Of a stretch of 50,894 nucleotides of DNA, positions 13,630 through 40,727 are shown in pieces (position 1 is the stretch's first letter; every line of letters begins with the position of its first letter). The notes under the pieces are model-generated. The model worked only from the letters and a program-made list of their open reading frames with translations. It did no database searches and was not told the DNA's origin. Location: NCBI GenBank assembly GCA_046485135.1, contig JAWOHN010000257.1, positions 1 to 50,894 of the forward strand, written 5' to 3'. The DNA comes from Anaerolineales bacterium. GTDB lineage: Bacteria; Chloroflexota; Anaerolineae; Anaerolineales; UBA4823. Both the position numbers and the translations under genes were made by a program.

Positions 13630-13634
13630 AACCA

Positions 13635-22105: not shown

Positions 22106-25100
22106 ATGCAGATGATCAAACCACAGACTGTCCGGTCGAAGCCTGCGGCTGCCCTAGTTGTGGGCGGTGGTATCGGTGGCATGCGCGCAGCGCTAGACCT
22201 GGCAGATGCTGGATTAAAGGTATACCTGGTAGAACAAACCCCCTGCCTGGGAGGGCGGGTGGCGCAACTTGGGTTTATGTTTCCACAACATGACTGTGTG
22301 CTGTGCCGGGGTACGCAAGACCATGGATACGGGTGCACCCGTCCATCCATTTCTCCGGCTTATATCCAGAATAACCAACACCCAAATATCGAAATCCTGA
22401 CCAATACCCGCATCATGGATGTGCAGGGTGAGGCGGGCGATTTTACGGCTGCATTGGTCCAGGAGCCGCGCCATGTTGACCCCTTTCGGTGCATCAATTG
22501 TGATTTATGCGCGCAGGTGTGCCCGGTGGAGCTGCCAAATGCCTACCAGTTGGGGATGACCAAGCGGAAAGCAGCGTATAAAGTTTCGGCTCGGGCAGCG
22601 CCAGATGCGTATGTGATCGACCGAGGACCTTATTGCGACGATTGCGGGAAATGCGAGCAAGTTTGCCCAACAAATGCCATCAACTTAAGCGAGCAACCTC
22701 GCTTGCTTACGGTGGATGTCGGCGCGATCATCCTGGCGTTGGGATTCAAGGTGTACCCGGCGGGGGAGCACCAGGAATTGGGAGCAGGGCGCTATCCGAA
22801 CGTGCTGGAGTCGATGCAATACGAGCGCCTGGCCAGCCGCTCTGGGCCAACTGAGGGCAGTATTTATCGACCATCGGATGGAAAACCACCTAAGTCAATC
22901 GCCTGGCTGCAATGCATTGGCTCGCGCGAGAAGGATCATCCTTATTGTTCCTCGATTTGCTGCATGTACGCCACCAAAGAGGCCTTGCTGGCAACCCAGC
23001 GCCTGGGAAACGATGTTTCTTGCAGCGTGTTCATCATGGATGAACGGGCATTCAACAAAGAGTACAGCGCCTATTTTCACAAGGCGCGTGAGACGCACGG
23101 CATCCAGTACCACCGTAGCCGGGTATCGGAAATCAAGGAAGATTCTGCCACCCACGACCTGATCCTGAGCTATAGTGATTCGGATGGAAAGACGCATTCA
23201 GAACGTTTCGAGATGGTGGTTTTGGCGACTGGCTTGCAGCCGCCTGATTCAGCACGCCAGCTGGCGGAGATGCTCTCGGTGGAGCTGAACGAACACGGTT
23301 TTTGTGAAACTGATAAATTTACCCCCTTACAAACGACCCGCCCGGGCGTGTTTGTGTGTGGAGCCTTCTCCTCACCCAAGGAGATTGCCGAAACCATCCT
23401 GGACGCTTCTGGGGCGGCAGCAGAGGTCATGCGCTTGCTCAACGACCGGCTGCATACGTACCCATACACGCGCGCCTATCCATTTCTAAGTGCAGAAGAC
23501 TATCCGGATGAACGAGATGTGAGCGGCGACCCGCCGCGGGTAGGAGTGTTCAGCTGTACATGCGGTGGAACCTTAACCAAAGACCTGGACATGTCTGCGC
23601 TGACGGTGCGGTCGTTGAATTGGCCCGGTGTGGAAATGGCAGAGGTGATCGATCTGGCTTGTTTTCCAGAAGAGCTGGAAAGGATGCGCCAGCGGATTGT
23701 AGAGCATGGCTTGAACCGGATCGTGGTAGCTGCCTGTAGTAACCGGACGCACGATGCATTATTCCAGAAATTAATGCGCAGCGCGGGGTTGAATCCGTAT
23801 TTGTTAGAGGTGGTGAACCTGCGTGACCAATGCAGCCAGGTACACCAAGATGTGCGCCTGGCTAACCGCAAGGCAGTGGAGCTTGTGCGCGTAGCTGTGG
23901 GGCGGGTAGTGGTAGCCAGACCGGTGTACAAAGAGAAACACGCTTGCTTCCCAGCCGCGCTGGTTATAGGCGGAGGCGTGGCGGGAATGACGGCAGCCCT
24001 GGCCATTGCCGATAGCGGTTATGACGTGAATTTGGTTGAACGCTCTGAGATCCTGGGTGGACATCTGCGCAACCTGTACTATGTGGCAGAAGGTTACAAC
24101 CCACAACGCCTGTTACGCGACCTGGTGAACCGGGTGCGCGGTCACCAGCGTATCTTCACACATACCCGCACGGTGATTACAGGCCAATCGGGGCATGTAG
24201 GCAGCTTTACGACCGGGTTGCTGACCTACCATACAGATGGCTCAGCGGAGGCATTGAGCGTTGAGCATGGTGTCACGATTATGGCCACGGGCGCGCAAGA
24301 AAACAAACAGCACCCTTTGTTGGAGATGCCTGGGGTGATCGTGCAAAGCGAGCTGGAAGAGAAAATTATCCACCATCCTGAGGAGATTGCAGCTTTGAAG
24401 GATGTGGTCATGATGCAATGTGTGCGCCCGGAAGGGGTGGCAGATTACTGCTCACGGGTGTGTTGCACCAATACCATGAAAAATGCCATCCGCCTCAAGC
24501 TATTTAACCCATCTTGCCGGGTAACCGTGCTTTATAAGAATATTGTCACCTACGGCTTTCGAGAGGAATATTACACAGAAGCGCGCCGGCATGGGGTGAT
24601 CTTTATTCGCTACACTGACCAGGAGCCTCCGCAAGTGAAACGGGTTAACGGCAAACTGGTGGTGCAAGTGCGCGATCTGTCCTTGGATCGCCTGGTGACG
24701 CTACCAGCAGACTTGTTGACCATGAGCATGTCAATCACCCCGGCTGAAGGGAGCAGAGAGCTGGCTGAATTGCTGCGCTTACCCCTATCGACGGAAGGTT
24801 TCTTGGAAGAAGCCCAACTTAAACTTAGACCGATGGATTTCATGCGCGAAGGAATCTTTCTGGCAGGGATGGCGCATTATCCCAAATTCCTAGAAGAAAG
24901 TATCAGCCATGCTCTGGCGGCAGCCGGACGAGCGCTGACCTTGCTCTCTCAGGAGTCACTATACCTGGGCGGGGTGGTGGCGGTCGTTGATGCAGAGAAA
25001 TGCGTGGGCTGTCTGACTTGTACACGGACCTGTCCATTTGAAATCCCCCAGGTGATTGAAGTTGAAGGCCGGCATGGCGTTGGTCAGCTTGGGGGAGCGG

Positions 25101-25264
25101 CTTATATCGATCCGACTCAATGCCAGGGTTGCGGGACATGCACAGGTGAATGTCCCGCCAATGCAATCCAATTGATCCATTACACAGATGAGCAGATGAT
25201 GCTGAGATCCATTGCAGGCCTGGGATCCTGGCAGGCTGAAACGATGATTGAGGCAATACAATGA
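22106..25264 (+). CDS. hdrA: HdrA-family flavo-iron-sulfur protein, double-core type (1052 aa)
   Basis: Two GGGxxG FAD motifs; QCIGSR..YCSSICC and YCSRVCC; CxC/ACS/NLRDQCS N-type domain; two 2x[4Fe-4S] ferredoxin modules. Confidence 0.92.
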   Translation: MQMIKPQTVRSKPAAALVVGGGIGGMRAALDLADAGLKVYLVEQTPCLGGRVAQLGFMFPQHDCVLCRGTQDHGYGCTRPSISPAYIQNNQHPNIEILTNTRIMDVQGEAGDFTAALVQEPRHVDPFRCINCDLCAQVCPVELPNAYQLGMTKRKAAYKVSARAAPDAYVIDRGPYCDDCGKCEQVCPTNAINLSEQPRLLTVDVGAIILALGFKVYPAGEHQELGAGRYPNVLESMQYERLASRSGPTEGSIYRPSDGKPPKSIAWLQCIGSREKDHPYCSSICCMYATKEALLATQRLGNDVSCSVFIMDERAFNKEYSAYFHKARETHGIQYHRSRVSEIKEDSATHDLILSYSDSDGKTHSERFEMVVLATGLQPPDSARQLAEMLSVELNEHGFCETDKFTPLQTTRPGVFVCGAFSSPKEIAETILDASGAAAEVMRLLNDRLHTYPYTRAYPFLSAEDYPDERDVSGDPPRVGVFSCTCGGTLTKDLDMSALTVRSLNWPGVEMAEVIDLACFPEELERMRQRIVEHGLNRIVVAACSNRTHDALFQKLMRSAGLNPYLLEVVNLRDQCSQVHQDVRLANRKAVELVRVAVGRVVVARPVYKEKHACFPAALVIGGGVAGMTAALAIADSGYDVNLVERSEILGGHLRNLYYVAEGYNPQRLLRDLVNRVRGHQRIFTHTRTVITGQSGHVGSFTTGLLTYHTDGSAEALSVEHGVTIMATGAQENKQHPLLEMPGVIVQSELEEKIIHHPEEIAALKDVVMMQCVRPEGVADYCSRVCCTNTMKNAIRLKLFNPSCRVTVLYKNIVTYGFREEYYTEARRHGVIFIRYTDQEPPQVKRVNGKLVVQVRDLSLDRLVTLPADLLTMSMSITPAEGSRELAELLRLPLSTEGFLEEAQLKLRPMDFMREGIFLAGMAHYPKFLEESISHALAAAGRALTLLSQESLYLGGVVAVVDAEKCVGCLTCTRTCPFEIPQVIEVEGRHGVGQLGGAAYIDPTQCQGCGTCTGECPANAIQLIHYTDEQMMLRSIAGLGSWQAETMIEAIQ

Positions 25265-25773
25265 CGCAGAAAGAAATCAGCCAGGAATTTGAACCTGAAA
25301 TCACTGCATTTTATTGCGTTTACTGTGGTTATATGGCAGCAGATACAGCCGGGGCGCTGCATATCCAATACCCGCCGAACGTGAAGTTTGTGCGAATGCC
25401 ATGTGGCGGCAAGACCGATATCCGTTACCTGCTGGAAGCCTTCGAGCAAGGGGCAGACGGAGTTTACTTGCTGGCCTGCCCGATCGGTAACTGTCACCAT
25501 GTGCGGGGGAACGAACGAGGCCAGGCGCGCATGGAACGGGCCAAAGCAATATTAGACGAAATCGGCCTGGGTGGAGAGCGCTTAAACATGTTTTTCATGT
25601 CCGGCAGCCAGGGACAGGCTTTTGCTAACGCAGCGAAAACGATGACGGAGCGCATCCGCAAGCTCGGTCCAAATCCGCTTAAGTTTGCAATTGAGAAAGT
25701 GCACGTTCCGATATCGATTGAAAGTGATCCAGAAGAAGAAAACGGTTTCCGAGGCAGGCGCCCAAAACGCTAA
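25261..25773 (+). CDS. mvhD: MvhD/FlpD [2Fe-2S] subunit, cysteine form
   Basis: FYCVYCGY, MPCGG, GADGVYLLACPIGNCHH (TGC at 25477), LGPNP; ATGA overlap with hdrA. Confidence 0.92.
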   Translation: MTQKEISQEFEPEITAFYCVYCGYMAADTAGALHIQYPPNVKFVRMPCGGKTDIRYLLEAFEQGADGVYLLACPIGNCHHVRGNERGQARMERAKAILDEIGLGGERLNMFFMSGSQGQAFANAAKTMTERIRKLGPNPLKFAIEKVHVPISIESDPEEENGFRGRRPKR

Positions 25774-25823: not shown

Positions 25824-28800
25824 ATGGCAAATTCTAAGGTATCTCCCTCCAAAGAACCTGCAATGCCGACCGGATCAGTAGTGGTCGTGGGTGGTGGAAT
25901 CGCGGGTATACAGGCCTCCCTAGACCTGGTGGAGCAAGGCTTTAAAGTTTATCTGGTTGAAACGCAAACTGCCATCGGTGGCAAGATGGCCCAGCTCGAT
26001 AAGACCTTCCCGACCAATGACTGCGCCATGTGCACGATCTCGCCGAAACTGGTTGAGACCGGGCGCCACCCCAATATCCACGTAATGACGGATACTGAGG
26101 TTTTAGATGTAAAGGGACAGGCTGGAAATTTCAGCGTTACCTTGCAGCATAAGGCCCGCTATATCGATACCTCGAAATGTGTGGGCTGCGGGGAATGCAC
26201 GGCTGTCTGTCCGGTGGTTGTGCCTGATAAGTTTAATGAGGGGCTAGACCAGCGCAGAGCAATTTTCAAGTTATACCCACAGGCTGTCCCAAATGCGTAT
26301 GCGATTGAGAAGCAAGGCATTTCTCCTTGCCGAGACGCCTGCCCGGCGGGTCAGCGTGCCCAAGGGTACATCGCATTAATCCGGGAGGGGCGCTGGGATG
26401 ATGCGCTGCGGGTAATCAAAATGGACAATCCCTTCCCGGGCATCTGCGGACGTATCTGCAACCACCGCTGTGAGACAGCCTGCAATCGCGGTCATGTAGA
26501 TGAGCCGATCAATATCCGGGCTTTGAAGCGATTTGTGACCGATAAGGTATATGCTGAACCACGAACACAAATTGAAGCGGTCCAAATTAAATATCCAGAC
26601 CGGCGGGTAGCGATCATCGGAGCTGGTCCCTGTGGACTGACGGCAGCGCGAGACCTGGTGGAAGCCGGCTATCCGGTTACCGTGGTCGAGGCCATGCCGG
26701 TGGCGGGCGGTATGCTGCGTTTGGGTGTGCCTGAGTACCGCTTGCCAGCAGAGATCATCGAGAGAGAAGTGCAAGACATCCTGGATCTGGGCGTAGAGCT
26801 GCGCTTGAACCACCAGGTGGAAAACCTGGATGATCTGTTTGACGAAGGCTTTGAAGCGGTATTGATTTCAGTGGGCGCGCATGAAGGCGTTCGCCTGCCG
26901 ATCCCCGGCGCAAACCTGGAAGGTGTATTGATCAACACGCACTTCTTGCGAGACGTGCGCCTGGGGAAATATGCGCAAGTCGATATCTCTGGCAACGGAG
27001 ATGCTGCCCCAGAACTGGGTGAACATGTGCTGGTCCTGGGGGGCGGAAATGTGGCGATCGACGTGGCACGCACGGCAGTGCGCCTGGGGCGGAAGGTTTC
27101 GATGGCCTTCCTTGAGTCAAGGGAGACGATGCCCTCTCACGATTGGGAGGTGCAGGCGGCGTTGGATGAAGGTATCCGTCTGTACCCAAGCCGGACCTTT
27201 GAGCGGATTGTGGCGGACGGAGATGGCAAAGCGGCTGGTGTTGAGTGCATGAATGCGCGCAATTTCAGCTTTGATGAAACAGGCCGGCTGAACGTAGATA
27301 AAGAACCGAGCTCTAACCACGTGGTCCCATGCGATACGGTGATCTTCTCGGTCGGGCAGCGGGCGGGTCTGGCCTTTATCCCTGACGATGCCGGGGTGGG
27401 TATGACGAACAAGCGGACCATCGCCATCAACCCCAACACCTTTGCAGCCACCCGTCCAGGTGTGTTTGCAGCCGGTGATAGTGTATCAGGCACAGCTTTT
27501 GTCATTGAGGCGGTAGCCAGTGGGCACACGGCGGCCGAGTCGATCATCCGCTACTTACAGGGAGACCAACTGGAGCCGCAGCCGAAGCCAGATCTGCCGG
27601 TGGTGCACCTGTCGCAGGACGAGCTGGCGGAACGCATTGCCCTTGGCGAGATTCACCGCCAACCACGCGTGCTTTTGCCGCAATTGCCGGTGGCTCAACG
27701 CCTGGATAATTTTGCAGAGGTGGAGGGCGGTTATGATGATGAGTCTGCACAAAGAGAGGCGGCGCGCTGCCTGGCTTGTGGCGTCTGTTCGGAGTGCATG
27801 AGCTGTACTTTTGTCTGCGGGGTCAATGCCATCGACCATAATATGGTCGTCAGAGAGGAGGTCGTTGAAGCCGGGGCGATTATCCTGGCGCCTGGATATC
27901 AGATATACAAGGCTGAGCTGTCAGAAGAGTACGGATTTGGGCGCTATCCAAATGTGATCACCTCTTTGCAATACGAGCGAATCCTTTCGGCCAGCGGACC
28001 GACCCGAGGCCACCTCAAGCGACCTTCCGATAGCAAAGCGCCCAAGCGCATTGCCTTCTTGCAATGCGTAGGCAGCCGCGACCAGAGCCACGATTACTGT
28101 TCGTCCGTGTGTTGTATGTACGCGGCCAAAGAAGCGATTATGACCATCGAGCATGCCCGGGCAGAAGCACGGTTGAGAGGTGAGGAAGCGGATGTATCTT
28201 GCGAGGTCTTTTTCATGGACACGCGCGCCTACAGCAAAGGCTATGAAGAATATTACCGGCGGGCTGAGGGTAAATACGGAGTCAAGTACACCCGAGCGCG
28301 CATCAGCCAATTGCGCGAAGACCCGAAAACTGGGAACCTAATTGTGCGTTATGCTGCTCCTTATGAGGGCAAGCCAAAACCAATTGAGCGTGAATTCGAC
28401 CTGGTGGTCCTGTCTGTTGGGATGGAGATTTCGGAATCGGTGCGCCAACTTGGGCGGACGCTAGGTGTCGAGCTGGACGATTACGGCTTTTGCCATACGA
28501 CGCTATTTGACCCATTGCAAACCAGCCGCCCTGGCATCTTTGCTGCCGGACCTTTCCGTGAGCCGAAGGATATCCCCGAATCGGTCACCGAGGCCAGCGG
28601 GGCGGCAGCGGCTGCTGCACAGCTCCTGTCTGCTTCCCGCTTTACATTGACCAGCGTACCAGAATACCCACCGATGCGCGAAGTGAAGGAAGAACCGCCC
28701 CGGACGGGAGTCTTCGTTTGCCATTGCGGTAGCAATATCGGCGGATATTTGGATGTGCCAGACGTGGCGAAATATGCCGGCTGTCTGCCTGGCGTGGTCC

Positions 28801-30416
28801 ACGCGGAAGATAATTTGTATACCTGCTCGCAGAATACCGTTGAACATATCATTGAGCAAGTGCGCGAGCTTGGGTTGAACCGGGTGGTGGTGGCTTCCTG
28901 TACTCCTTTGACGCATGAGGGCATGTTCCAGGATGCTTTACGACAGGCCGGACTCAACCCGTACTTATTCGAGATGGCCAATATTCGCAACCAGTGTTCC
29001 TGGATTCATTCAAAAGACTGGGATGGAGCTACAGAAAAGGCCAAAGCGCTGGTGCGCATGGCGGTTGGCCGAGTGGGCGAGCTGGAGCAGCTGTACACCG
29101 AAGAGGTGCAGGTGGAACATTCTGCACTGGTGATCGGTGGTGGACCGGCGGGTATGACAGTCGCACTAAGCCTGGCAGATCAGGGATTTCCGGTGCATTT
29201 GGTGGAGCGTAGCGCGAAATTAGGCGGCAATTTACGAAACCTGCGTTATTTCGCTGACCAGGAGCGCACGCCGTTGGATTTCCTGAACGAGATCGAGGCG
29301 AATGTCCTGAAGCACCCCCTGATCACTACCTACCTGGATGCCGAAGTCAAGGAAACCGGCGGCTTCAAAGGTAGCTTTTCCTCCAAAGTGCGTGTAGGCA
29401 CCCAGACGATTCGCGTCCAACATGGCGTGACCATCCTGGCAACCGGCGGAGTCGAATATAAGGGTCAGGAATACGGATACGGGCGTGACTCGCGCATTTT
29501 GACCCAGCTGGAATTTGAGCAGCGCCTGGCAGAGAACGGGGCAGAACTTCCTGGCAAGGTGGTCATGATTCAATGTGTTGGTCCAGGCGAAAAATCTTGC
29601 AGCCGGATATGCTGCACAACTGCCTTGAAAAATGCGCTCAAGCTCAAAGATCTCAACCCTGCTGCGGATGTGACGATTCTATACCGGGATATCCGTACCT
29701 ACGGGTTCAAAGAACGGCTGTACAGTCAAGCCCGCCAGGCAGGGATCCGCTTTGTCCATTTTGAATTCGAGCATAAACCGAAAGTGCGGGTAAGCCCACA
29801 GGACAGCACCCGGCCCGGAAGGCTTTCAGTGAAAATCACAGAGCCTCTCCTGGAGCGCGAGATCGAACTGGGCGCTGACCTGATCGTATTGAGTACGCCA
29901 ATGGTTCCTGCAGAAGGTATCCAGGATCTGGCTACGGCGCTCAAGTTGTCGGTGGGTACGGACGGCTTCTTTATGGAGGCGCATGTTAAGCTACGCCCGG
30001 TCGATTTCACCTCAGACGGGGTCTTTATGGCTGGCGCAGCCCACTTCCCGAAATTCCTGGATGAGACGCTTGCCCAGGCGCAGGCGGCTGCTTCGCGAGC
30101 CGCTATCACGCTGTCGAAACGAACCCTGTTAACCAATGCGAGTGTTGCTGTGGTCGATGCGGAAAAATGCGTTGGATGCCTGACATGCGTGCGGATTTGC
30201 CCTTATGACGTACCAAAGGTTTCGAATGATTACACCGGCGCCGGTGGAATCCTGGGCGCGGCTTATATTGAACCGGCTGTCTGCCATGGATGTGGAAGCT
30301 GTGCGGCTGAATGCCCAGCTCAGGCCATTCAATTGATGCACTATAAAGACGCTCAAATCCTGGTCAAACTGGATGCCTTATTCAATCAAACCCCAGAAAG
30401 GGTCGTGGTGAAGTGA
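25824..30416 (+). CDS. hdrA: HdrL-type HdrA with inserted GltD-like NAD(P)H:FAD oxidoreductase module (1530 aa)
   Basis: QLDKTFPTNDCAMC; insert with PCRDACP, CGRICNHRCETAC, GAGPCG, GGGNVAID, GVFAAGD, EAARCLAC; two HdrA cores; C-terminal ferredoxin. Confidence 0.92.
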   Translation: MANSKVSPSKEPAMPTGSVVVVGGGIAGIQASLDLVEQGFKVYLVETQTAIGGKMAQLDKTFPTNDCAMCTISPKLVETGRHPNIHVMTDTEVLDVKGQAGNFSVTLQHKARYIDTSKCVGCGECTAVCPVVVPDKFNEGLDQRRAIFKLYPQAVPNAYAIEKQGISPCRDACPAGQRAQGYIALIREGRWDDALRVIKMDNPFPGICGRICNHRCETACNRGHVDEPINIRALKRFVTDKVYAEPRTQIEAVQIKYPDRRVAIIGAGPCGLTAARDLVEAGYPVTVVEAMPVAGGMLRLGVPEYRLPAEIIEREVQDILDLGVELRLNHQVENLDDLFDEGFEAVLISVGAHEGVRLPIPGANLEGVLINTHFLRDVRLGKYAQVDISGNGDAAPELGEHVLVLGGGNVAIDVARTAVRLGRKVSMAFLESRETMPSHDWEVQAALDEGIRLYPSRTFERIVADGDGKAAGVECMNARNFSFDETGRLNVDKEPSSNHVVPCDTVIFSVGQRAGLAFIPDDAGVGMTNKRTIAINPNTFAATRPGVFAAGDSVSGTAFVIEAVASGHTAAESIIRYLQGDQLEPQPKPDLPVVHLSQDELAERIALGEIHRQPRVLLPQLPVAQRLDNFAEVEGGYDDESAQREAARCLACGVCSECMSCTFVCGVNAIDHNMVVREEVVEAGAIILAPGYQIYKAELSEEYGFGRYPNVITSLQYERILSASGPTRGHLKRPSDSKAPKRIAFLQCVGSRDQSHDYCSSVCCMYAAKEAIMTIEHARAEARLRGEEADVSCEVFFMDTRAYSKGYEEYYRRAEGKYGVKYTRARISQLREDPKTGNLIVRYAAPYEGKPKPIEREFDLVVLSVGMEISESVRQLGRTLGVELDDYGFCHTTLFDPLQTSRPGIFAAGPFREPKDIPESVTEASGAAAAAAQLLSASRFTLTSVPEYPPMREVKEEPPRTGVFVCHCGSNIGGYLDVPDVAKYAGCLPGVVHAEDNLYTCSQNTVEHIIEQVRELGLNRVVVASCTPLTHEGMFQDALRQAGLNPYLFEMANIRNQCSWIHSKDWDGATEKAKALVRMAVGRVGELEQLYTEEVQVEHSALVIGGGPAGMTVALSLADQGFPVHLVERSAKLGGNLRNLRYFADQERTPLDFLNEIEANVLKHPLITTYLDAEVKETGGFKGSFSSKVRVGTQTIRVQHGVTILATGGVEYKGQEYGYGRDSRILTQLEFEQRLAENGAELPGKVVMIQCVGPGEKSCSRICCTTALKNALKLKDLNPAADVTILYRDIRTYGFKERLYSQARQAGIRFVHFEFEHKPKVRVSPQDSTRPGRLSVKITEPLLEREIELGADLIVLSTPMVPAEGIQDLATALKLSVGTDGFFMEAHVKLRPVDFTSDGVFMAGAAHFPKFLDETLAQAQAAASRAAITLSKRTLLTNASVAVVDAEKCVGCLTCVRICPYDVPKVSNDYTGAGGILGAAYIEPAVCHGCGSCAAECPAQAIQLMHYKDAQILVKLDALFNQTPERVVVK

Positions 30417-30883: not shown

Positions 30884-31296
30884 CAAAGGAAGCGTATATC
30901 CTGGTTGTGGATGATGACCCAGACATCCTGGAAAATATTGTCACCATCCTAGAAACCCAACCTTACCGGCTGGCTACAGCGCGGGATGGCAAACAATGTA
31001 TGAAAATGTTGGAACAAGAAACGCCTGACCTGTTGATCTTGGATCTGCTGATGCCACGCATGGATGGGTGGGGCGTGATTCGCGAGATGCGCAGTGAGCG
31101 GAAATTCGATAAGGTTCCTATTATGATCCTCTCCACGGTGGTAGAGGACGCCAGCCGGCGGCGGTATGAACTGGAGACAGGCATGTCGATGGATGTTCAA
31201 GAGTATATCCAGAAGCCAGCCAGACCAGCGGAACTATTACGGCTGGTGGTTAAGCTATTAAATATCAAGGAGGCGGCTGACTTTGAAATTGGTTAG
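30880..31296 (+). CDS. Single-domain response regulator (receiver only)
   Basis: ILVVDDD, PDLLILDLLMPRMDG, IMILST, YIQKP; no output domain. Confidence 0.92.
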   Translation: MTKEAYILVVDDDPDILENIVTILETQPYRLATARDGKQCMKMLEQETPDLLILDLLMPRMDGWGVIREMRSERKFDKVPIMILSTVVEDASRRRYELETGMSMDVQEYIQKPARPAELLRLVVKLLNIKEAADFEIG

Positions 31297-32546: not shown

Positions 32547-32549
32547 GCT

Positions 32550-35500
32550 GTGACTACCATGAATGTGAGAAGTGCACCTCCAATTTATGAAGCTGAGCCA
32601 CCTGTAGGGGCCGTCCTGGTAGTTGGCGGTGGAATTGCGGGCATGCAGGCTGCGCTGGATCTGGCAGACCAGGGTTTCAAAGTGTACCTGGTCGAATCAG
32701 ACACGGCGATTGGCGGGCATATGGCGCAGCTCGATAAGACCTTTCCGACCAACGATTGCGCCATGTGCAATATCAGTCCAAAACTGGTGGATACGGGACG
32801 ACATCCGGATATTGATATCCTGACCGGAAGTGAAGTCCTGTCTATTAACGGAGAGGTGGGCAATTTCACCGCCCGGGTATTGAGGAAACCGCGCTACGTC
32901 GATGTGAATAAGTGCATTGGCTGCGGGGAATGTGTTCCGGTCTGTCCAGTGGAAATATTTGATCCGTATGAAGAGGGCTTGAAAACCCGCAAAGCCATTT
33001 ACCGGCGCTATGCTCAGGCGGTTCCGGCAGCCTATGCCATCGAAAAGCTGGGAACTGCCCCTTGCCGGAGTGGCTGCCCGGTAGGTCAGCGCGCCCAAGG
33101 ATATATTGCTTTGATTGCCAAAGGACGATATCGCGATGCCTTACGGGTGATCAAAGAAGACAATCCTTTTCCGAGCGTTTGTGGGCGGACCTGCCACCAT
33201 CCTTGCGAAGGGAAATGTACCCGAGCGCTGGTCGACGAGGCAGTCAGCATTATGTCGCTGAAACGCTTTGTGGTAGATTATGCCCTGGCTTACGGGAGAG
33301 AGAAGGTACAACCCGTTCCACGCACACATCCAGAATGGGTGGCAGTGGTAGGATCTGGCCCGGCTGGTTTGACAGCCGCCCATGATCTGGTCAAAATGGG
33401 CTATGGGGTGACAGTCTATGAAGCTCTCAGTGTCCCAGGTGGCCTGATGCGGGTGGGGATACCGGCCCACCGCCTGCCGAAAGGTGAATTACAACAAGAC
33501 ATCGATGACATCCTGGCCCTTGGCGTTGTCCTAAAAACCAATTCTCCGATAGAGGATCCGGTCAAATTGCTGGAGGAGGGCTATAACGCGGTCTGCCTGG
33601 CGACGGGTATTTCTTCAGCCAATCTCTCCCTGGGGATCGAAGGGGAGCAGGCGGAAGGAGTTTTGTTGGCGCCTGAGTTTCTACGCAAGATCAATTTGGG
33701 CCAGCCCATCCAGATTGGAGATCGGGTGGCAGTGGTAGGTGGAGGCATCACGGCGCTAGATGCGGCGGCTGTCGTGCGCAGGCTGGGTGCGGAAGTCTAC
33801 GTGGTATTAGATCGCCCGCGTGGAGAGCTGCCGGCTTACCAAACTGAAATTGAGGCTGTCGAAGCTGAGGGGATTCATATTTACGATCATATGACCGCGG
33901 CCCGCATCCTGTCAGAAAATGGAGCAGTAGTAGGTGTGGAGCTGGCCAAAGCGGACCAGGGGTATGTTACCGACGCGTCCGGACGGCGGCGGCCAAAGCT
34001 GGTACCCGGCAGCGAGATGCAACTGGAAGTGGATACCGTCATTGGCACTGTGGAACAGTTGTCGGACCTGACTTATCTGGCGCCAAAATATCAAGACCTG
34101 GCGGCGGATAAAAACACACTAGCCAGCAGCGTCCCCGGGCTGTTCGTGGTGGGTGGGCGGAAGACCGGAGCCAGCTATGTCATTGAAGCGGTTGCGCTGG
34201 GGCATAAAGTGGCTCGATCCATTCAGCGCTACCTGCAAGGTCTGCCTTTGTTGCAACCTGAAATACCCGCTCCGCCGATCGCTAAGCTGACCCGGCAAGA
34301 GGTGGCTGAGCGCGTACAAGCCGGGCATATTCAGCTGGCGCCCAGGCAAAAACCTGCTTTGTTGTCGATGGGCGAGCGGGCTACCAGCTTTCGAGAGGTG
34401 GTGCTTGGCTTTACCGAGCATCAGGCCAGGGCAGAAGCAGAGCGCTGCTTGCAGTGCGGCGTTTGCTCAGAATGTATGGAATGCTCTTATGCCTGTGGTG
34501 TGGATGCGATCGATCATGATAGCGTTGCGCGTGAAGAGGAAATCCGGATTGGGGCGGTCATCCTGGCGCCGGGTTACCAGGCATATTCTGCGGAGCATTC
34601 TGAAGAATACGGATTGGGTCGATATCCAAACGTATTGACCGCTCTGCAATTTGAGCGGTTGCTGTCCGCTTCAGGACCCACCTTGGGGCATGTGTTGCGA
34701 CCCTCAGACCAGCGGGAGCCAAGGCGAATTGCCTTCTTGCAATGTGTTGGCTCGCGAGATCGCACGCATGATTACTGTTCTTCTGTTTGCTGTATGTACG
34801 CTACGAAGGAAGCGGTGATCGCCAAAGAGCATTGTCCGGAATTGGATGTGCATATCTTTATGATGGATATGCGCGCGTTTTCAAAGGGTTACCTGGGCTA
34901 TTTTGAACAAGCCAGGCAACGCTACGGGGTCCATTACCACCATAGCCGGATCAGTCAAATCCGCGAAGATGCGCATAGCCACGATTTGCTGTTGCGCTTC
35001 AGCACTGTGGAGGAGACTTCTCAGGGTAAGGACTCTCCGGCAACGGCCCACCTGGAGCGGTTTGACATGGTGGTTCTCTCGGTTGGGATGGAGATTTCAG
35101 AGCCAGTGCGTGAGCTGGGCCAGCGCCTTGGGATTGAACTGGATAACTATGGTTTCTGCCAAACCGTCCAATTTGATCCGTTGGAGACAAACCGGCCTGG
35201 TATCTATGCGGTAGGGCCATTTCGGGAGCCAAAGGATATCCCCGAATCTGTCATCGAAGCGAGCGGGGCTGCGGCGGCGGCCGCTGGGCGCCTTTACCCG
35301 GCTCGGTTCAACCTGAGCAAACGCCCGGAAAAGCCTTTGGAACGAGATGTCAGCGATGAAGAGCCACGAATTGGAGTCTTTGTCTGCTCTTGTGGCTCGA
35401 ATATTGGCGGCTTCCTGGACGTTCCAGAAGTAGCCAGTTACGCGGAAAAGCTGCCGAATGTATGCCATAGTGAATGGAACCTTTACACCTGTGCGCAAGA

Positions 35501-37082
35501 TAGCATCGAGCGAATCACTGAACAGGTGCGGGAGCGTGGACTTAATCGGGTGGTGGTAGCCAGTTGCAGCCCTCTGACTCACAAACCGCTATTTCAAGAC
35601 AGTATTCGAGCGGCTGGTTTGAACCCATATTTATTTGAAATGGCAAATATCCGCAACCAATGCTCCTGGGTACACTCCCTGGATCGAGAAGCAGCCGGCG
35701 AGAAAGCCAAAGAGTTGGTGCGTATGGCGGTGGCAAGAGCAGCCTTATTAGAGGCTCAAAAGATGGTTGCTGTGGAAGTAAATCAGGCGGCTCTGGTGGT
35801 GGGAGGCGGCGCTGCCGGTATGACGGCGGCTCTGTCCCTGGCGGAGCAAGGCTTCCCGGTCCATTTGGTAGAAAAGCAGGCTGAGTTGGGCGGGAATTTG
35901 CGGCATCTTTACAAACAAGCCAGTGGAAAAGATCCACAGGAATACTTGTGCAGGCTGTTGCAAGAGGTGCATGCAAATCCAAATATCAGCGTGCATTTGG
36001 AGAGTCAGGTCGTTGCCAGCTCGGGATTTATGGGCAATTTCAGCAGCACCATCCTTGGCCCGCAAGGCAGGCAGCAAGTGTCTCATGGTGCGACGATATT
36101 GGCTACCGGCGGTGGAGAAGACCGGGAAAGATTAGGCGGTTTGCACAAAGATGAGCGTGTCCTGACGCAGCAAGAATTTGAGGCCTGGCTGTTTGCTTGG
36201 CAGCAGTCTGGGGAGATTGGCAAATCCAAGCGTCCTGCCAGGGTGGTGGTGCACCTGTGTGCAGGACAGGAAGTGGATTACTGTAGCCGGGTTTGTTGCT
36301 ACCAGGCGCTGAAAAATGTCCTTTGGTTGAAAGAGTTGTCTCCAGAAACCGAAGTACTGGTGCTTTACAAAGATATCCGAGCCTATGGTTTCAAAGAGAA
36401 GTTATATAAAGAAGCCCGCGCACAGAAGGTGCTGTTCTTGAGATATGACCATTCTCGCCCCCCACAAGTTGAGCACGTTCTGAGCGGAAAGGAACTCGAA
36501 CCAGCTCTGGCGATACGCGCCTGGGAAAACGCGCTGGGGAAGTGGATCGAGTGGGAAGCGGATCTATACGTGATGAGCTTGCCTGTTATTCCTAACCCGG
36601 AAACAAAAAGGACAGCGTCGATCTTTAAGGTGCCCAGAGATGCGGATGGTTTCTTTGTTGAGGCGCACGTCAAGCTAAGACCGGTGGATTTCGCCTCTGA
36701 GGGCATTTTTATGGCAGGTATGGCCCATTTCCCGAAGCTTTTGGACGAATCGATCATCCAGGCTAAAGCGGCTGCGGCGCGGGCAGCCAGGGTTCTGAGC
36801 CGGGAAATTCGCACGGTGGGGGGGCGGGTGGCAGTGGTCGACCCGGAACTGTGTACCGGTTGCCTGACCTGCGTCCGAATTTGTCCGTTTGGTGTGCCAC
36901 AGATCGACACCAATATTGCTGGAGCGGGAGGGATTATCGGGGCAGCCACGATTGAAGCCGCAGTGTGCCAGGGGTGTGGCAGCTGTGCGGCTGAATGCCC
37001 GGCTCGGGCGATCCAATTGAAGCACTATACGGATACCCAAATGAGCGCATTGGTGACGGCATTGATAGGGGAGGCGGTATGA
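32550..37082 (+). CDS. hdrA: Second HdrL-type HdrA with GltD-like insert (1510 aa)
   Basis: Same architecture as 25824-30416: DCAMC, PCRSGCP, CGRTCHHPCEGKC, GSGPAG, QCVGSR..YCSSVCC, C-terminal ferredoxin. Confidence 0.92.
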   Translation: MTTMNVRSAPPIYEAEPPVGAVLVVGGGIAGMQAALDLADQGFKVYLVESDTAIGGHMAQLDKTFPTNDCAMCNISPKLVDTGRHPDIDILTGSEVLSINGEVGNFTARVLRKPRYVDVNKCIGCGECVPVCPVEIFDPYEEGLKTRKAIYRRYAQAVPAAYAIEKLGTAPCRSGCPVGQRAQGYIALIAKGRYRDALRVIKEDNPFPSVCGRTCHHPCEGKCTRALVDEAVSIMSLKRFVVDYALAYGREKVQPVPRTHPEWVAVVGSGPAGLTAAHDLVKMGYGVTVYEALSVPGGLMRVGIPAHRLPKGELQQDIDDILALGVVLKTNSPIEDPVKLLEEGYNAVCLATGISSANLSLGIEGEQAEGVLLAPEFLRKINLGQPIQIGDRVAVVGGGITALDAAAVVRRLGAEVYVVLDRPRGELPAYQTEIEAVEAEGIHIYDHMTAARILSENGAVVGVELAKADQGYVTDASGRRRPKLVPGSEMQLEVDTVIGTVEQLSDLTYLAPKYQDLAADKNTLASSVPGLFVVGGRKTGASYVIEAVALGHKVARSIQRYLQGLPLLQPEIPAPPIAKLTRQEVAERVQAGHIQLAPRQKPALLSMGERATSFREVVLGFTEHQARAEAERCLQCGVCSECMECSYACGVDAIDHDSVAREEEIRIGAVILAPGYQAYSAEHSEEYGLGRYPNVLTALQFERLLSASGPTLGHVLRPSDQREPRRIAFLQCVGSRDRTHDYCSSVCCMYATKEAVIAKEHCPELDVHIFMMDMRAFSKGYLGYFEQARQRYGVHYHHSRISQIREDAHSHDLLLRFSTVEETSQGKDSPATAHLERFDMVVLSVGMEISEPVRELGQRLGIELDNYGFCQTVQFDPLETNRPGIYAVGPFREPKDIPESVIEASGAAAAAAGRLYPARFNLSKRPEKPLERDVSDEEPRIGVFVCSCGSNIGGFLDVPEVASYAEKLPNVCHSEWNLYTCAQDSIERITEQVRERGLNRVVVASCSPLTHKPLFQDSIRAAGLNPYLFEMANIRNQCSWVHSLDREAAGEKAKELVRMAVARAALLEAQKMVAVEVNQAALVVGGGAAGMTAALSLAEQGFPVHLVEKQAELGGNLRHLYKQASGKDPQEYLCRLLQEVHANPNISVHLESQVVASSGFMGNFSSTILGPQGRQQVSHGATILATGGGEDRERLGGLHKDERVLTQQEFEAWLFAWQQSGEIGKSKRPARVVVHLCAGQEVDYCSRVCCYQALKNVLWLKELSPETEVLVLYKDIRAYGFKEKLYKEARAQKVLFLRYDHSRPPQVEHVLSGKELEPALAIRAWENALGKWIEWEADLYVMSLPVIPNPETKRTASIFKVPRDADGFFVEAHVKLRPVDFASEGIFMAGMAHFPKLLDESIIQAKAAAARAARVLSREIRTVGGRVAVVDPELCTGCLTCVRICPFGVPQIDTNIAGAGGIIGAATIEAAVCQGCGSCAAECPARAIQLKHYTDTQMSALVTALIGEAV

Positions 37083-37516
37083 ACAGCGAAAAGTTCCAAA
37101 TCCTGGCTTACTGCTGCGAACATTGTGCATACGCCGCTGCCGACCAGGCAGGAGGCATGAGGTTACAATACCCAGCGCAAATCAAGATCGTTATGCTGCC
37201 CTGCACGGGAAAGCTGGATGTGTTGATGGTTTTGGAGGCGGTGGAAGCTGGTATTGACGGCGTGCTGGTGGCAGGTTGACTGCCAGGTGACTGCCATTAC
37301 CTGGAAGGTAATGCCAACGCCAGAAGACGGGTAGATCATTTGAGGTGCATTCTGAGCGATATTGGCCTGGAACCAGAGCGATTGCAAATGGTGAATATGT
37401 CCTCTGCGATGGGCGCCCAGTTTGCCCAGATGAGCACGGAGATTACAAATCAGATTATACAGTTAGGCCCTAACCCTTTGAGGTCAGGAAGAGCAGGTAA
37501 GATAAGCGATGTTTAA
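37079..37516 (+). CDS. mvhD: MvhD [2Fe-2S] subunit, probable selenoprotein (Sec67, UGA 37277-37279), 145 aa
   Basis: MNSEKFQILAYCCEHCAY...LPCTG...GVLVAG-U-LPGDCHYLEGN...GLEPERL...LGPNPL to TAA 37514-37516; ATGA overlap with hdrA; GGAGG RBS. Confidence 0.9.
37295..37313 (+). promoter_or_regulatory. Bacterial SECIS-like hairpin
   Basis: CATTACCT-GGA-AGGTAATG; same core sequence and same spacing from the UGA as at 30636. Confidence 0.8.
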
Positions 37517-37575
37517 GCAGAAGAGCAGGGATGACATCATCCCTGACTCAAATCACTCAAAAGGAGTGTGTATCC

Positions 37576-38259
37576 ATGATCGTTGCGGAACAAAAATCCC
37601 TGAATGAAATCAAGCAGCTGGTCGGCGCCGCCAAGAATGTGTTGGTGGTGGGCTGCGGGACATGCGTTACAGTCTGTTTTGCCGGCGGCTCGCGCGAGGC
37701 TGCTATCCTGGCCTCATCGTTGCGCATGGCCTCAAAGCTGGAAGGAGGTCCCAAAGCCGTGACTGACGTGACGGTGCAGCGACAGTGCGAGTGGGAATAT
37801 CTGGACGGCATTGCCGAACAAGTGAAGGAAGCTGAGCTGGTGGTGTCCTTGGGCTGCGGCATTGGTGTTCAAGCAATTGCCGAACATTTCCCGGAGACCT
37901 GGGTCGTGCCGGGGTTGAATACCAGATTCTTAGGTCTGCCCACCGAGCAGGGTATCTGGATGGAGCGCTGCGCGGCTTGCGGGGATTGCGTGTTGGGGTT
38001 GACGGGCGGGATTTGCCCCATTGCCCGTTGTTCGAAGTCCCTGTTGAACGGACCCTGTGGTGGATCGGTAGATGGACATTGCGAGATCGATCCAGAAGTT
38101 CCTTGTGCGTGGCAGCTTATTTACGATCGACTGAACAGCATGGGTAGGCTGGAGTTTATGACCGAAATTCAGCCAGCGAAGAACTGGCGGACAAGCAGGG
38201 ATGGTGGTCCGCGGCGAATAGTTCGCAATGATTTGAGACTGGCAGCAGAGGAGGAGTAG
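37576..38259 (+). CDS. metV: Methylene-THF reductase iron-sulfur subunit MetV
   Basis: GCGTCVTVCFAGG, RQCE, GCGIGVQ, CAACGDC, CPIARCSKSLLNGPCGG, C..CAW; AAGGAG RBS before ATG 37576. Confidence 0.92.
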   Translation: MIVAEQKSLNEIKQLVGAAKNVLVVGCGTCVTVCFAGGSREAAILASSLRMASKLEGGPKAVTDVTVQRQCEWEYLDGIAEQVKEAELVVSLGCGIGVQAIAEHFPETWVVPGLNTRFLGLPTEQGIWMERCAACGDCVLGLTGGICPIARCSKSLLNGPCGGSVDGHCEIDPEVPCAWQLIYDRLNSMGRLEFMTEIQPAKNWRTSRDGGPRRIVRNDLRLAAEEE

Positions 38260-38262
38260 ACC

Positions 38263-39297
38263 ATGGCAGCTAGTGTATCTGGAAATGGTTACCTATCGGG
38301 TTCAAACCTGGAACGAGTATTGCGAGCGGGGCATTTCGCGGTAACAGGAGAGCTTGGGCCGCCGCAGAACGCAGATGGGGAAGTGATTCGCAAGAAAGCT
38401 GCCTTATTGAAAGGCTATGTGGATGCGGTGAACCTCACCGACAACCAGACAGCCATTGTCCGCATGTCGAGCATCGGCGCAGGTACGATCGTGGTGCAAG
38501 AGGGATTGGAGCCGGTAATCCAGATGACTTGCCGCGATCGCAACCGGTTGGCGATGCAAAGCGACTTATTGGGCGCGTATGCACTGGGTATGCGGAACGT
38601 CTTGTGCCTGACGGGCGATCACCAAACATTTGGCAACCATCCTAACTCAAAGAACGTCTTTGATATGGATTCGATACAGTTGGTGCAAATGCTGGTCAAT
38701 ATGCGCGAGGAGAAGGTGTTCCAAAATGGAGAGGCCTTCAAAGGACCTGAGCCGCGTTTCTTCGTTGGCGCAGCTGAGTCACCCTTCGCTCACCCGGTGG
38801 AATTTCGGCCTCTGCGCCTGGCAAAAAAGGTTAAGGCTGGGGCGAACTTCATCCAGACCCAGCTGGTTTATGATATCAAGGCCTTCGAAGCGTTCATGGA
38901 GAAGGTGCGGGCATTGGGAATTCATAAAGAGACCTATATCCTGGCAGGCGTCGGACCATTGAAAAGCCCTGGAATGGCCAAGTATATGATCGAAAACGTG
39001 CCGGGCATTCTCGTTCCGGATGATATGGTCAAAAGGATGACCGCAGCTGGAGCTCCCTGGGCTGGGAAAAGCAAAGACGAGCTGACCAAAGAAGATAAAA
39101 AAGCCCGTTCAAGCGCCTGGCAGCAGGAGGGCATTCAAATTTGTATCGAGCTGATCCAGCAGCTCCAAAAAATCGAAGGTGTAGCAGGTGTTCATATTAT
39201 GGCGATTGAGTGGGAAGAAGCGGTGAAGCCACTGGTAGAAGGGGCGGGATTGTACCCGCGACCCATCGTGGCGAATCCGGTGGAGGAGGTAGCTTAA
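38263..39297 (+). CDS. metF: Methylene-THF reductase flavoprotein subunit MetF
   Basis: TGELGPP, VNLTDNQ, QMTCRDRNRLAMQSDLLGA, LTGDH, KKVKAGANFIQTQ, GVHIM. Confidence 0.95.
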   Translation: MAASVSGNGYLSGSNLERVLRAGHFAVTGELGPPQNADGEVIRKKAALLKGYVDAVNLTDNQTAIVRMSSIGAGTIVVQEGLEPVIQMTCRDRNRLAMQSDLLGAYALGMRNVLCLTGDHQTFGNHPNSKNVFDMDSIQLVQMLVNMREEKVFQNGEAFKGPEPRFFVGAAESPFAHPVEFRPLRLAKKVKAGANFIQTQLVYDIKAFEAFMEKVRALGIHKETYILAGVGPLKSPGMAKYMIENVPGILVPDDMVKRMTAAGAPWAGKSKDELTKEDKKARSSAWQQEGIQICIELIQQLQKIEGVAGVHIMAIEWEEAVKPLVEGAGLYPRPIVANPVEEVA

Positions 39298-40727
39298 TGA
39301 CTAAAGGACAGGAATCTTCTGGAGAACCTTTAACGATCAACCCGGAACTGGCCCAGCGAATCCAGGATGAGATTGGGCAGAACGTTTACCTGTGCTACCA
39401 GTGCATCAAATGCACCAATGGTTGCCCGGTGAGCGAATACTTCGATTGGCAGCCGAACCAGATCATGAGAGCGGTGCAGCTGGGACAGGAAGACATCGCA
39501 TTGCACTCCCAAACTGCATGGCTGTGCGCCAGCTGCCAGACTTGCACGACTCGTTGCCCGCAGGACCTGGATATTACCGCCATCATGGAGTTCTTGACCC
39601 GGGAGGCGCTCGAGCGCGGCATAAAACCAAGCGTGCCAGAGGTGGATGTCTTTAATAAAGCCTTTATGCGGGAGGTACGCATCTGGGGGCGCTCCTATGA
39701 ATTGGGCTTGATGATGGATATGAAGTTGCGCAATATCCGCAGGCACAGCTTGATGGATGACATGGACCTGGGCGTGCGGGTGATTGCAAAAAATAAATTG
39801 CCCTTCCTGCCCAAATATGTGCGGGCTCCTAAAAACGTCAAGCCGGTTCCCGGCGCTGCCAGCGCGGTAGCCTATTATCCAGGCTGCTCGTTACATTCTA
39901 CAGCCGGTGAATATAACGTTTCTACCAAAGCAGTATGTGAGGCGCTGGGGATGCAACTGGTAGAGCCAGATGGGTGGATTTGCTGCGGTAGCTCTGCCGC
40001 TCACCGCTCAGATCCAGAAGAGGCCCTGCGGCTGCCGATGGAAAACCTGCGCCTGATCGAACAGGGCGGTTTTAGCGAGGTAACCATGCCTTGTGCGGCC
40101 TGCTTCAACCGTCACAAGGCTGCCCAATACGAGATCCGCCATCATAAGGACCGCCGGGATGCACTGGACAAGGCCATGGATTATAAATACCAGGACTTGG
40201 TGCAGGTGAACTCTGTAATCGATACAATCTACCAGCGAATTGGCCCGGAGGAGCTCTCAGCGAAAGTGCAGCGCAAGTTGGATGGTTTAAGAGTCGTATG
40301 TTACTATGGCTGTTTGCTGACCCGGCCGCCGCAGGTGACTGAAGCGCAGCACCCGGAAAACCCGACTGAAATGGATGCGCTTATGGAAGCCCTGGGCGCT
40401 CAGGTCTCGGACTGGTCTTACAAGACCACCTGCTGCGGGGCAGCGCATTCGTTGACGCGGCCGGATATTGTATTGGACCTGAGCAGTAACCTGATCGAAC
40501 ATGCCCGGGAGGCGGGCGCTGATGCGATTGTTGTGGCTTGTCCGCTCTGCCACACCAACTTAGATGCCAGGCAGTTCCAAATGAAACTTGAGCAGCCCAT
40601 GCCAGTGTTGTATTTGACGCAGTTGATGTCCATCGCCTTGGGATTGCCAGAGAAATCAGCTGCACTGCACAAGAACCTGGTCGATCCACGACCGATGTTG
40701 AGGAGCAAAGGTTTTCTGGCAGGTTAG
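39297..40727 (+). CDS. Fused HdrC-HdrB (two [4Fe-4S] clusters plus two CCG domains)
   Basis: CYQCIKCTNGCP, CASCQTCTTRCP; YYPGC...CCG...CAAC and YYGC...CCG...CPLC; TAATG overlap with metF. Confidence 0.9.
   Translation: MTKGQESSGEPLTINPELAQRIQDEIGQNVYLCYQCIKCTNGCPVSEYFDWQPNQIMRAVQLGQEDIALHSQTAWLCASCQTCTTRCPQDLDITAIMEFLTREALERGIKPSVPEVDVFNKAFMREVRIWGRSYELGLMMDMKLRNIRRHSLMDDMDLGVRVIAKNKLPFLPKYVRAPKNVKPVPGAASAVAYYPGCSLHSTAGEYNVSTKAVCEALGMQLVEPDGWICCGSSAAHRSDPEEALRLPMENLRLIEQGGFSEVTMPCAACFNRHKAAQYEIRHHKDRRDALDKAMDYKYQDLVQVNSVIDTIYQRIGPEELSAKVQRKLDGLRVVCYYGCLLTRPPQVTEAQHPENPTEMDALMEALGAQVSDWSYKTTCCGAAHSLTRPDIVLDLSSNLIEHAREAGADAIVVACPLCHTNLDARQFQMKLEQPMPVLYLTQLMSIALGLPEKSAALHKNLVDPRPMLRSKGFLAG

Follow-up and report, generated by a model that had tools for sequence, protein, structure and literature searches.

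A predicted Hdr-type methylenetetrahydrofolate reductase cluster with three non-equivalent HdrA-MvhD pairs in an Anaerolineales genome

The DNA analyzed here, referred to below as the window, is one whole contig of 50,894 nucleotides (JAWOHN010000257.1; C187 in our numbering) from the metagenome-assembled genome of an Anaerolineales bacterium (GCA_046485135.1; 3.10 Mb, 262 contigs, 82% complete). It carries a cluster of hdrA, mvhD, metV, metF and hdrCB genes, and family or domain matches were found for all eleven genes from hdrA1 to hdrCB; every gene between 11197 and 40727 lies on the + strand. Three hdrA genes are each followed by an mvhD gene of their own. The hdrA1 gene (22106..25264; 1052 amino acids [aa], HdrA-like domains) precedes mvhD1 (25261..25773; 170 aa, FlpD family, 3e-42); hdrA2 (25824..30416; 1530 aa, HdrA-like domains plus a GltD/NfnB-like insert) precedes mvhD2 (30416..30883; 155 aa, matching solved MvhD/VhuD at 5e-42); and hdrA3 (32550..37082; 1510 aa, with the layout of HdrA2) precedes mvhD3 (37079..37516; 145 aa, its product 64% identical to MvhD2). 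Between the second and third pairs stand two genes that are found at the same place in related loci, one for a 138-aa response regulator consisting of a receiver (REC) domain without an output domain (30880..31296) and one for a 412-aa soluble histidine kinase with a cNMP-binding domain, HisKA and HATPase_c (31308..32546). The third pair is followed by metV (37531..38259; PF12225, the C-terminal domain of MetV-type proteins, 3e-37) and the adjacent metF (38263..39297; PF02219, methylenetetrahydrofolate [methylene-THF] reductase, 2.3e-35). At the end of the cluster, HdrC and HdrB functions are encoded as one fused protein of 476-505 aa (39297..40727), with two ferredoxin-type Cys motifs (Fer4_17/Fer4_8) followed by two CCG domains (PF02754, two stretches).

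The junctions from hdrA1 to hdrCB either overlap or are 3-50 nt apart. Each hdrA stop overlaps the start of its mvhD (ATGA at 25261-25264, TGATG at 30414-30418 and ATGA at 37079-37082), and the mvhD2 stop overlaps the start of the response regulator gene (ATGA). The regulator and the cNMP-binding kinase are embedded in a redox-enzyme operon and translationally coupled to mvhD2, and neither brings a DNA-binding output domain. Because relatives of HdrCB align only from residue 24-47 of the long open reading frame (ORF), and because the ATG at 39297 lies one base into the metF stop codon, this ATG is most likely the start of hdrCB (~476 aa), rather than the GTG at 39210. Scanned for promoter and terminator consensus sequences, the stretch 21500-41200 showed 9 and 22 sites (shuffled sequences, 13.5 and 17.9), which is uninformative, and none was intergenic. 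A preliminary description of the window, made from its sequence, had reported the three hdrA genes with these lengths, each translationally coupled to its own mvhD, and then metV, metF and a single hdrC-hdrB fusion. Its coordinates, lengths and coupling are correct and the domain matches confirm the genes after the third pair, but the two-component genes and two in-frame TGA codons, one each in mvhD2 and mvhD3, had gone unreported.

The three HdrA proteins differ in what they contain. HdrA1 has two tandem TrxR-like FAD modules, the first of which holds a complete inserted 2x[4Fe-4S] ferredoxin domain and aligns, with that inserted two-cluster domain, to residues 145-510 of the solved methanogen HdrA. 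It is followed by an MvhD-like N-domain, a second TrxR-like module without an inserted domain and a C-terminal two-cluster domain; a GltD/NAD(P)H module is lacking. HdrA2 presents the HdrA1 frame plus a GltD/NfnB-like insert of about 435 aa (approximately residues 166-600). In both HdrA2 and HdrA3 the insert splits the inserted ferredoxin domain between its two cluster motifs and matches NfnB/GltD-type proteins (E 1e-68 to 1e-80), and both proteins match solved HdrA in both halves. HdrA2 and HdrA3 are 52% identical over their full length, and HdrA1 and HdrA2 are 44% identical across the 880 residues that they have in common. An MvhD-like N-domain and a C-terminal ferredoxin domain occur once each in every tandem HdrA, the latter well kept in all three, and the cofactor motifs are all intact. 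In a BLASTP comparison, the N- and C-terminal TrxR-like modules gave no mutual alignment beyond the FAD motif.

By mapping the modules through alignments to 5ODC, we found that the residues equivalent to E356 and K409 of this structure are kept in all six TrxR-like modules (E240/K291 and E751/K792 in HdrA1, E718/K769 and E1232/K1269 in HdrA2, E702/K753 and E1211/K1255 in HdrA3). E356 and K409 of Methanothermococcus thermolithotrophicus HdrA make up the bifurcation signature that the text of PMC9430772 takes from Appel et al. 2021. These residues mark HdrA1 to HdrA3 as potentially bifurcating, a signature and not a proof.

To see how the cluster is arranged in relatives, we used species-representative genomes, in which 496 stretches encode an HdrA2 relative; the best 80 of the 496 were examined, and these loci are kin of one another, not independent samples. 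HdrA2 has at least 120 cluster representatives at 70% identity or more, about 1535 aa long and from Anaerolineales or Chloroflexi where named. Directly 3' of the giant hdrA-mvhD pair comes metV in 45 of the 80 loci, two-component genes and a second giant hdrA in 23, and two-component genes followed by metV in 2; in the other 10, the pair reaches the end of the locus and is cut. Two-component genes accompany the second giant hdrA in all 23 loci that have one. The order of regulator (r) and kinase (k) beside the second giant hdrA varies among relatives (r-k, k-r, k-r-r, r-k-k-r). An HdrA1-type pair precedes the giant HdrA by no more than 1.5 kb in 48 of the 80 loci; in 16 there is none within 4.2 kb upstream, and the remaining 16 could not be judged. 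A synteny survey in Chloroflexota, proposed in the preliminary description, thus finds that the threefold array recurs, with the complete order of the window, a short pair and a giant pair followed by the two-component genes and another giant pair, in 9 of 80 loci, or 11 when a 3-kb spacer is allowed. About one third of the classifiable loci add a further regulated, diverged giant module, and the minimal set conserved in relatives is giant HdrA-MvhD-MetV-MetF-HdrCB. Across the class, an HdrA2-like match at E <= 1e-100 was obtained in 182 of 401 sampled genomes (113 of 216 genera); this search scored two candidates per genome and gives prevalence, not copy number. Six related loci (L025, L065, L066, L074, L085 and L086) carry extra distant metV/metF-like pairs, 32-53% identical, up- or downstream of the Hdr cluster, which recalls the two MetVF sets reported for the marine Anaerolineae bin DscP3 (text of PMC5736913).

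The mvhD2 and mvhD3 genes each contain one in-frame TGA (30617-30619 and 37277-37279), in the contexts VAG-U-LEGECHY and VAG-U-LPGDCHY, which are aligned with a Cys (TGC) of MvhD1. Because of this codon, ordinary ORF calling splits both genes; read as selenocysteine (Sec), the TGA makes them complete genes, a reading that is well supported. In the window and the 80 related loci, the codon at this position of mvhD is TGA in 86 genes, TGC in 46 and TGT in 23. Its distribution follows the type of the preceding hdrA: after an HdrA1-type gene, mvhD has a Cys codon in 45 of 45 cases, after the first or sole giant hdrA it has TGA in 69 of 74, and after the second giant hdrA in 13 of 18, with 16 matches not assignable to a position. 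All 86 TGA genes have a hairpin of at least 6 bp at a fixed distance, in most cases CATTACC-TGGAA-GGTAAT, compared with 6 of 67 Cys genes. In the window, this element, resembling a selenocysteine insertion sequence (SECIS), occupies 30635..30653 on the + strand, starting 18 nt past the first base of the mvhD2 UGA, and 37295..37313 on the + strand, 3' of the mvhD3 UGA. The fold z-scores of the two window hairpins are modest (-1.9 and -2.3). TGA and Cys genes are not told apart by the folding energy of the 60 nt past this codon (mean -17.4 kcal/mol for TGA versus -19.7 kcal/mol for Cys genes), and the Cys-type genes in this comparison are richer in G+C than the TGA-type. A search of the window with Rfam at gathering thresholds gave no match, neither to a curated SECIS nor to a riboswitch family.

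The genome encodes machinery for Sec, with tRNA-Sec on contig C137, SelA (533 bits) and SelD (350 bits); of SelB, a 123-aa fragment at a contig end was found (178 bits, below the cut-off). The selD gene (C72:22551-23486) itself contains one in-frame TGA, as is common among Sec-using organisms. The Sec position of the window MvhD proteins aligns with the second Sec ("vagX") of Methanococcus maripaludis VhuD (PDB 9SFI, chain K), and Sec in MvhD is already known from the texts of PMC2702500 and PMC13518236. The split between Cys-MvhD with short HdrA and Sec-MvhD with giant HdrA was not found described in the literature searched, a search that covered article text and not figures or supplements. 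Since gene callers break Sec genes, this split offers a handle for annotation.

A fragmented genome of 262 contigs at 82% completeness, with in-frame stops in two mvhD genes, could suggest an artefact, namely a chimera of paralogous clusters or decaying duplicates with mvhD pseudogenes. We consider this very improbable. Seven studies, with 20 runs between them, contain a near-identical 10-kb core, and contigs from two of these, both other than the source study, together bridge every cluster junction: those of run X2 (records 17, 20 and 21) cover 21900-27292, 28878-34682 and 34684-37748, and those of run X6 (records 25, 30 and 31) cover 21900-26027, 27402-33980 and 33957-40800. These contigs and the recurrence of the same order in 23 of 80 loci, from other species, rule out the assembly chimera that the preliminary description had itself raised. 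A pseudogene origin of the split mvhD genes is likewise ruled out: the stop falls at one and the same codon and is TGA in every case (86 genes, against 69 with a Cys codon there), the hairpin accompanies it, tRNA-Sec, SelA, SelD and the SelB fragment are present, and the cofactor motifs are intact.

The preliminary description had spoken of three giant HdrA paralogues, as interchangeable or co-assembled input modules. The three are not equivalent, since HdrA1 is without an NAD(P)H module and HdrA3 belongs to an old separate lineage. The latter was recognized in a FastTree phylogeny of 101 giant HdrA ORFs from the window and the related loci, each covering more than 1350 query residues, which was rooted with six HdrA1 sequences of our choice and in which support values are SH-like, not bootstrap. 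Sixteen of 20 second giant copies fall into three deep groups of 5, 8 and 3 rows, of which the group of 8 (support 99) includes HdrA3 of the window. All three are outside a clade of 85 rows (support 100) that holds every first or sole copy; the four remaining second copies are inside this clade, and two of them are evident recent duplicates. When first and second copies of the same locus were compared, the GltD insert was the least alike part in 11 of 11 pairs (43-48% identity), and the first part of the N-terminal flavin module was 61-75% identical. Between orthologues, the insert was the best or second-best kept part (73-79%, 4 pairs). The pattern fits HdrA3 as a long-kept old paralogue that would differ in what enters at the insert. 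In one related locus (L037), the two giant HdrA proteins (7195-11886 and 13861-18474) are 100% identical in the second part of the N-terminal flavin module, 90% identical over the next domain and 48-70% identical elsewhere, which suggests gene conversion or a local assembly collapse or misassembly.

The divergence also touches the nucleotide-binding motif of the insert. Five of the five nearest solved NfnB-like relatives read YRR, where HdrA2 reads FLES and HdrA3 reads VLDR, so that the motif difference noted in the preliminary description is real. By alignment column (relatives/HdrA2/HdrA3), the residues are Y/F/L, R/L/D and R/E/R; HdrA3 thus has its acidic residue one position earlier and keeps one Arg. 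The clade with HdrA2 has an acidic "CLE"-type motif in 83 of 85 members and YRR in 2 of 85, with the flavin GD motif in 85 of 85. Of the 16 members of the deep HdrA3-like lineages, 13 have L[D/H][R/K/Q]P and, where GD would stand, GG[R/H]K or AGRK; the other three have the canonical YRRT and GGD. Window HdrA3 has GGRK at the flavin GD motif (approximately residues 545-555, window 33900-34100), a conserved replacement. The preliminary description took both motifs to point to NADH. For HdrA2, the use of NADH may fairly be inferred from the motif and from the NADH oxidation reported for Moorella HdrA (text of PMC9430772). Because HdrA3 diverges most in the NAD(P)H-binding insert, with one Arg kept and the GD Asp lost, the statement appears safe only for HdrA2.

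The cluster was compared with known systems through their published descriptions, and likeness to Moorella and Sporomusa subunits was judged from these and not from sequences. Since all features of gene content and domains are present, the cluster is, as predicted from its genes, an Hdr-type (Moorella-type, "type IV") methylene-THF reductase directly behind an acs operon, which bears out the proposal of a Moorella-type MetVF-HdrCB-HdrA-MvhD enzyme. Moorella thermoacetica MetFV-HdrCBA-MvhD (Mock et al. 2014, via the text of PMC9430772) has in common with it metV, metF, hdrB/C, mvhD, an HdrA of about 1500 aa and a place next to acs genes. According to the same text, Moorella HdrA (162.8 kDa) has a TrxR-like domain interrupted by a GltD domain and the E/K residues in both modules, and is reported to oxidize NADH, with the second acceptor not known. 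As in HdrA2 and HdrA3, it is the N-terminal TrxR-like domain that this GltD-type FAD/NAD(P)H domain interrupts, and the C-terminal methanogen-like part is without an inserted ferredoxin domain. The "giant" or expanded HdrA of the preliminary description is therefore the published Moorella layout, which both HdrA2 and HdrA3 have, and which HdrA1 does not have because it is without the GltD part. The window differs from the Moorella cluster, as described in PMC9430772, in having three HdrA-MvhD pairs and not one, hdrC and hdrB fused and placed after metF, Sec in two MvhD proteins and two-component genes inside the cluster.

HdrA1, by contrast with Moorella HdrA, fits the layout described in the text of PMC9430772 for HdrA of Sporomusa ovata HdrCBA-MvhD-MetVF (101 kDa, two TrxR-like domains, five [4Fe-4S] clusters, no GltD), a likeness of description and not of sequence. 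However, S. ovata HdrA has the E/K signature in one module only, whereas HdrA1 has it in both, and HdrA1 shares its operon with Moorella-type HdrA proteins. Within the same phylum, the marine Anaerolineae bins DscP3, An-B22 and SM23 (Sewell et al. 2017; text of PMC5736913) have hdrA-mvhD-metVF-hdrCB with a fused hdrCB and a two-component system, "phoBR", by metF, comparable to the two-component genes of the window; a Chloroflexi cluster with these features has thus been in print since 2017. The text of that article describes one HdrABC-MvhD-MetVF complex and does not speak of several pairs, HdrA types or Sec-MvhD, although its Fig. 2 may show more. Desulfobacterium autotrophicum (Strittmatter et al. 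2009; text of PMC2702500) has giant fusions of HdrA and glutamate-synthase-type proteins with an NADH site (HdrL), each followed by mvhD, and, like the window, Sec in several MvhD proteins, with many Hdr loci per genome; these loci adjoin dsr, fdh and other genes, not metVF, and some of the HdrL proteins are themselves selenoproteins. Several different HdrA-MvhD pairs on one MetVF core were not found described in the article texts searched, figures and supplements lying outside that search. What appears new is the order of the three modules, in which the two published HdrA layouts share an operon, together with the Cys/Sec split, the divergence of an old paralogue focused on its insert and the fixed link of this paralogue to two-component genes.

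We infer from these features the electron paths, the use of NADH, bifurcation and the binding of modules to the core, in the following way. The MetF-MetV core would be wired through the fused HdrCB and served by three non-equivalent HdrA-MvhD modules. HdrA2 with Sec-MvhD2 would be the standard module, in which NADH enters at the GltD-like insert and electrons pass by Fe-S clusters to the flavins in both TrxR-like modules and then to the C-terminal ferredoxin domain, and from there through HdrCB and MetV to MetF. HdrA1 with Cys-MvhD1 has no pyridine-nucleotide site and has an exposed, methanogen-type inserted ferredoxin domain, and it would therefore give electrons to, or take them from, ferredoxin or a partner docked at MvhD1. 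HdrA3 with Sec-MvhD3 could be a condition-specific input tied to the cNMP-sensing kinase and the REC-only regulator. With its one C-terminal ferredoxin domain and one MvhD-like N-domain, each HdrA would hold a single MvhD and dock onto a single HdrCB. Because single hdrCB, metV and metF genes face three hdrA genes in the cluster, the three modules are most likely alternative inputs that bind the HdrCB-MetVF core one at a time; we give this reading, the simplest one, about an even chance. A precedent is the Hdr-Vhu-Fwd assembly of M. maripaludis (PDB 9SFI; text of PMC13518236), where input modules are exchangeable, and even concurrent, on one Hdr. There, hydrogenase or formate dehydrogenase is exchanged on one HdrA, whereas in the window it is the HdrA-MvhD unit that is present in several copies, and a hydrogenase was not found.

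The frequent pairing of the short and giant modules raises the main rival possibility, that HdrA1-MvhD1 and HdrA2-MvhD2 (with HdrA3-MvhD3 where present) sit together on HdrCB-MetVF. NADH would then enter through the giant HdrA, the exposed ferredoxin domain of HdrA1 would be the low-potential branch, and the reaction would be 2 NADH + methylene-THF + oxidized ferredoxin to methyl-THF + reduced ferredoxin, or its reverse. Such co-assembly is in keeping with the 48 of 80 loci in which an HdrA1-type pair immediately precedes the giant pair, and with the tight coupling in the window. It also agrees with the domain layout, in that the GltD insert occupies the inserted ferredoxin domain of HdrA2 and HdrA3, while in HdrA1 this domain is uninterrupted and aligns to the ferredoxin-reducing domain of methanogens. 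The second acceptor still missing for the Moorella-type enzyme (PMC9430772) and the simultaneous binding of two different input modules to one methanogen Hdr (PMC13518236), as far as the texts of these articles go, would suit it as well. However, 16 of the 80 loci have giant HdrA-MvhD-MetVF(-HdrCB) with no HdrA1-type gene within 4.2 kb upstream, which argues against an obligatory association; Moorella, by its published description (PMC9430772), manages with the giant HdrA alone; and the cluster has one HdrCB gene only and no predicted docking surface between HdrA proteins. We therefore regard co-assembly as possible but hold it with some doubt. Its most specific form, in which HdrA1 and a giant NADH-type module co-assemble, HdrA1 is the ferredoxin branch and the cNMP-regulated third module brings in another donor when conditions change, seems to us improbable. 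If true, it would supply the branch missing from every model of an Hdr-type methylene-THF reductase, and the operon would make the second acceptor of the Moorella-type enzyme testable.

Other Hdr genes in the genome bear on a third possibility. One contig (C48:1-6653) has an HdrA fragment, MvhD, an unknown protein, ferredoxin and an FAD_binding_2 flavoprotein; another (C5:1973-6592) has fumarate-reductase-type FrdA/FrdB-like subunits with an HdrCB-like and an HdrA-like gene; and C130 has two HdrA-like genes. Because Hdr sets outside the cluster adjoin fumarate-reductase-type flavoproteins in the same genome, HdrA-MvhD units thus appear to serve as modules with several terminal enzymes in this organism. 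By extension, only HdrA2-MvhD2 might work in the methylene-THF reductase, and HdrA1-MvhD1 and/or HdrA3-MvhD3 might feed other acceptors, for example by passing low-potential electrons to carbon monoxide dehydrogenase/acetyl-CoA synthase (CODH/ACS) or by serving unlinked reductases, being merely cotranscribed with Wood-Ljungdahl genes. The place of HdrA1 at the acs side, and a minimal conserved set that holds a giant HdrA, would agree with this. Against it, the pair next to metV is HdrA3-MvhD3 and not HdrA2-MvhD2, both in the window and in the 23 loci with two giant hdrA genes, no gene for an alternative acceptor lies inside the cluster, and the C-terminal ferredoxin domain that would dock HdrC is well kept in all three HdrA proteins. 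We consider it unlikely that the modules are divided in this manner. The genome also encodes the alpha subunit of a formate dehydrogenase, and it has two NfnB-like genes (C214) and additional copies of metF (C98, C220 and C262). As the preliminary description had said of mvhAG, no hydrogenase gene is among the annotated window ORFs; it had also reported flxABCD lacking, genes for which no search was made. NiFe or FeFe hydrogenase large subunits and RnfD were not found in the genome, which at 82% completeness does not establish their absence.

Several points weigh against alternative inputs with NADH as the donor. The rule that an acidic residue in place of the YRR arginines means NADH is a rule of thumb, and the GD motif of flavin sites is also read by rule; by the latter, the HdrA3-type insert may not be a normal flavin site, as the GD Asp is lost in 13 of the 16 members of the deep lineages. 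The pairing of HdrA1 with a giant HdrA in 48 of 80 loci can be read as obligatory co-function just as well as alternation. Partners outside the cluster are possible, since other contigs carry an additional HdrCB-like gene and three or more HdrA-like genes. No RNA run is listed among those matching window 30000-39999, the X2 and X6 contigs being DNA. Finally, according to the text of PMC9430772, the Sporomusa and Moorella complexes have not been purified intact and the second acceptor is not known, so that the reference mechanism is itself open.

Which donors and acceptors the Hdr-type methylene-THF reductase uses is among the unsettled questions of Wood-Ljungdahl energetics. Anaerolineae are abundant in sediments, and they commonly encode both published HdrA layouts beside one MetVF-HdrCB core, so that loci with one, two or three modules form a natural comparison set for the roles of the modules. 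What the sequences show directly is which genes, domains and motifs are present, that TGA is recoded as Sec, how far the layout is conserved, and how old the divergence of the paralogues is and where in the protein it lies. None of this alters the known kind of system, and statements on function are predictions.

The genes around the cluster are also of note. Upstream, an acs operon (11608..21901, + strand; NCBIfam matches over or near the cut-off) comprises acsA for CODH (11608-13629), acsB (13635-15917), acsD (16556-17530), acsC (17584-18900), acsV (18920-20902) and the methyltransferase gene acsE (20978-21901). An ORF for a 199-aa CBS-domain protein lies between acsB and acsD (15936-16535, + strand) and recurs at the same place in some related loci. 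The operon is headed by a 135-aa ORF (11197-11604) with a weak match to a UxxU metal-binding (seleno)protein (27 bits, cut-off 95) and no Pfam match. Downstream of hdrCB, two genes for MinD/ParA-type ATPases (43441..45017, + strand; sub-threshold NCBIfam MinD-type matches) may encode CooC/AcsF-type nickel-insertion proteins for CODH/ACS, and this gene pair recurs downstream of hdrCB in related loci.

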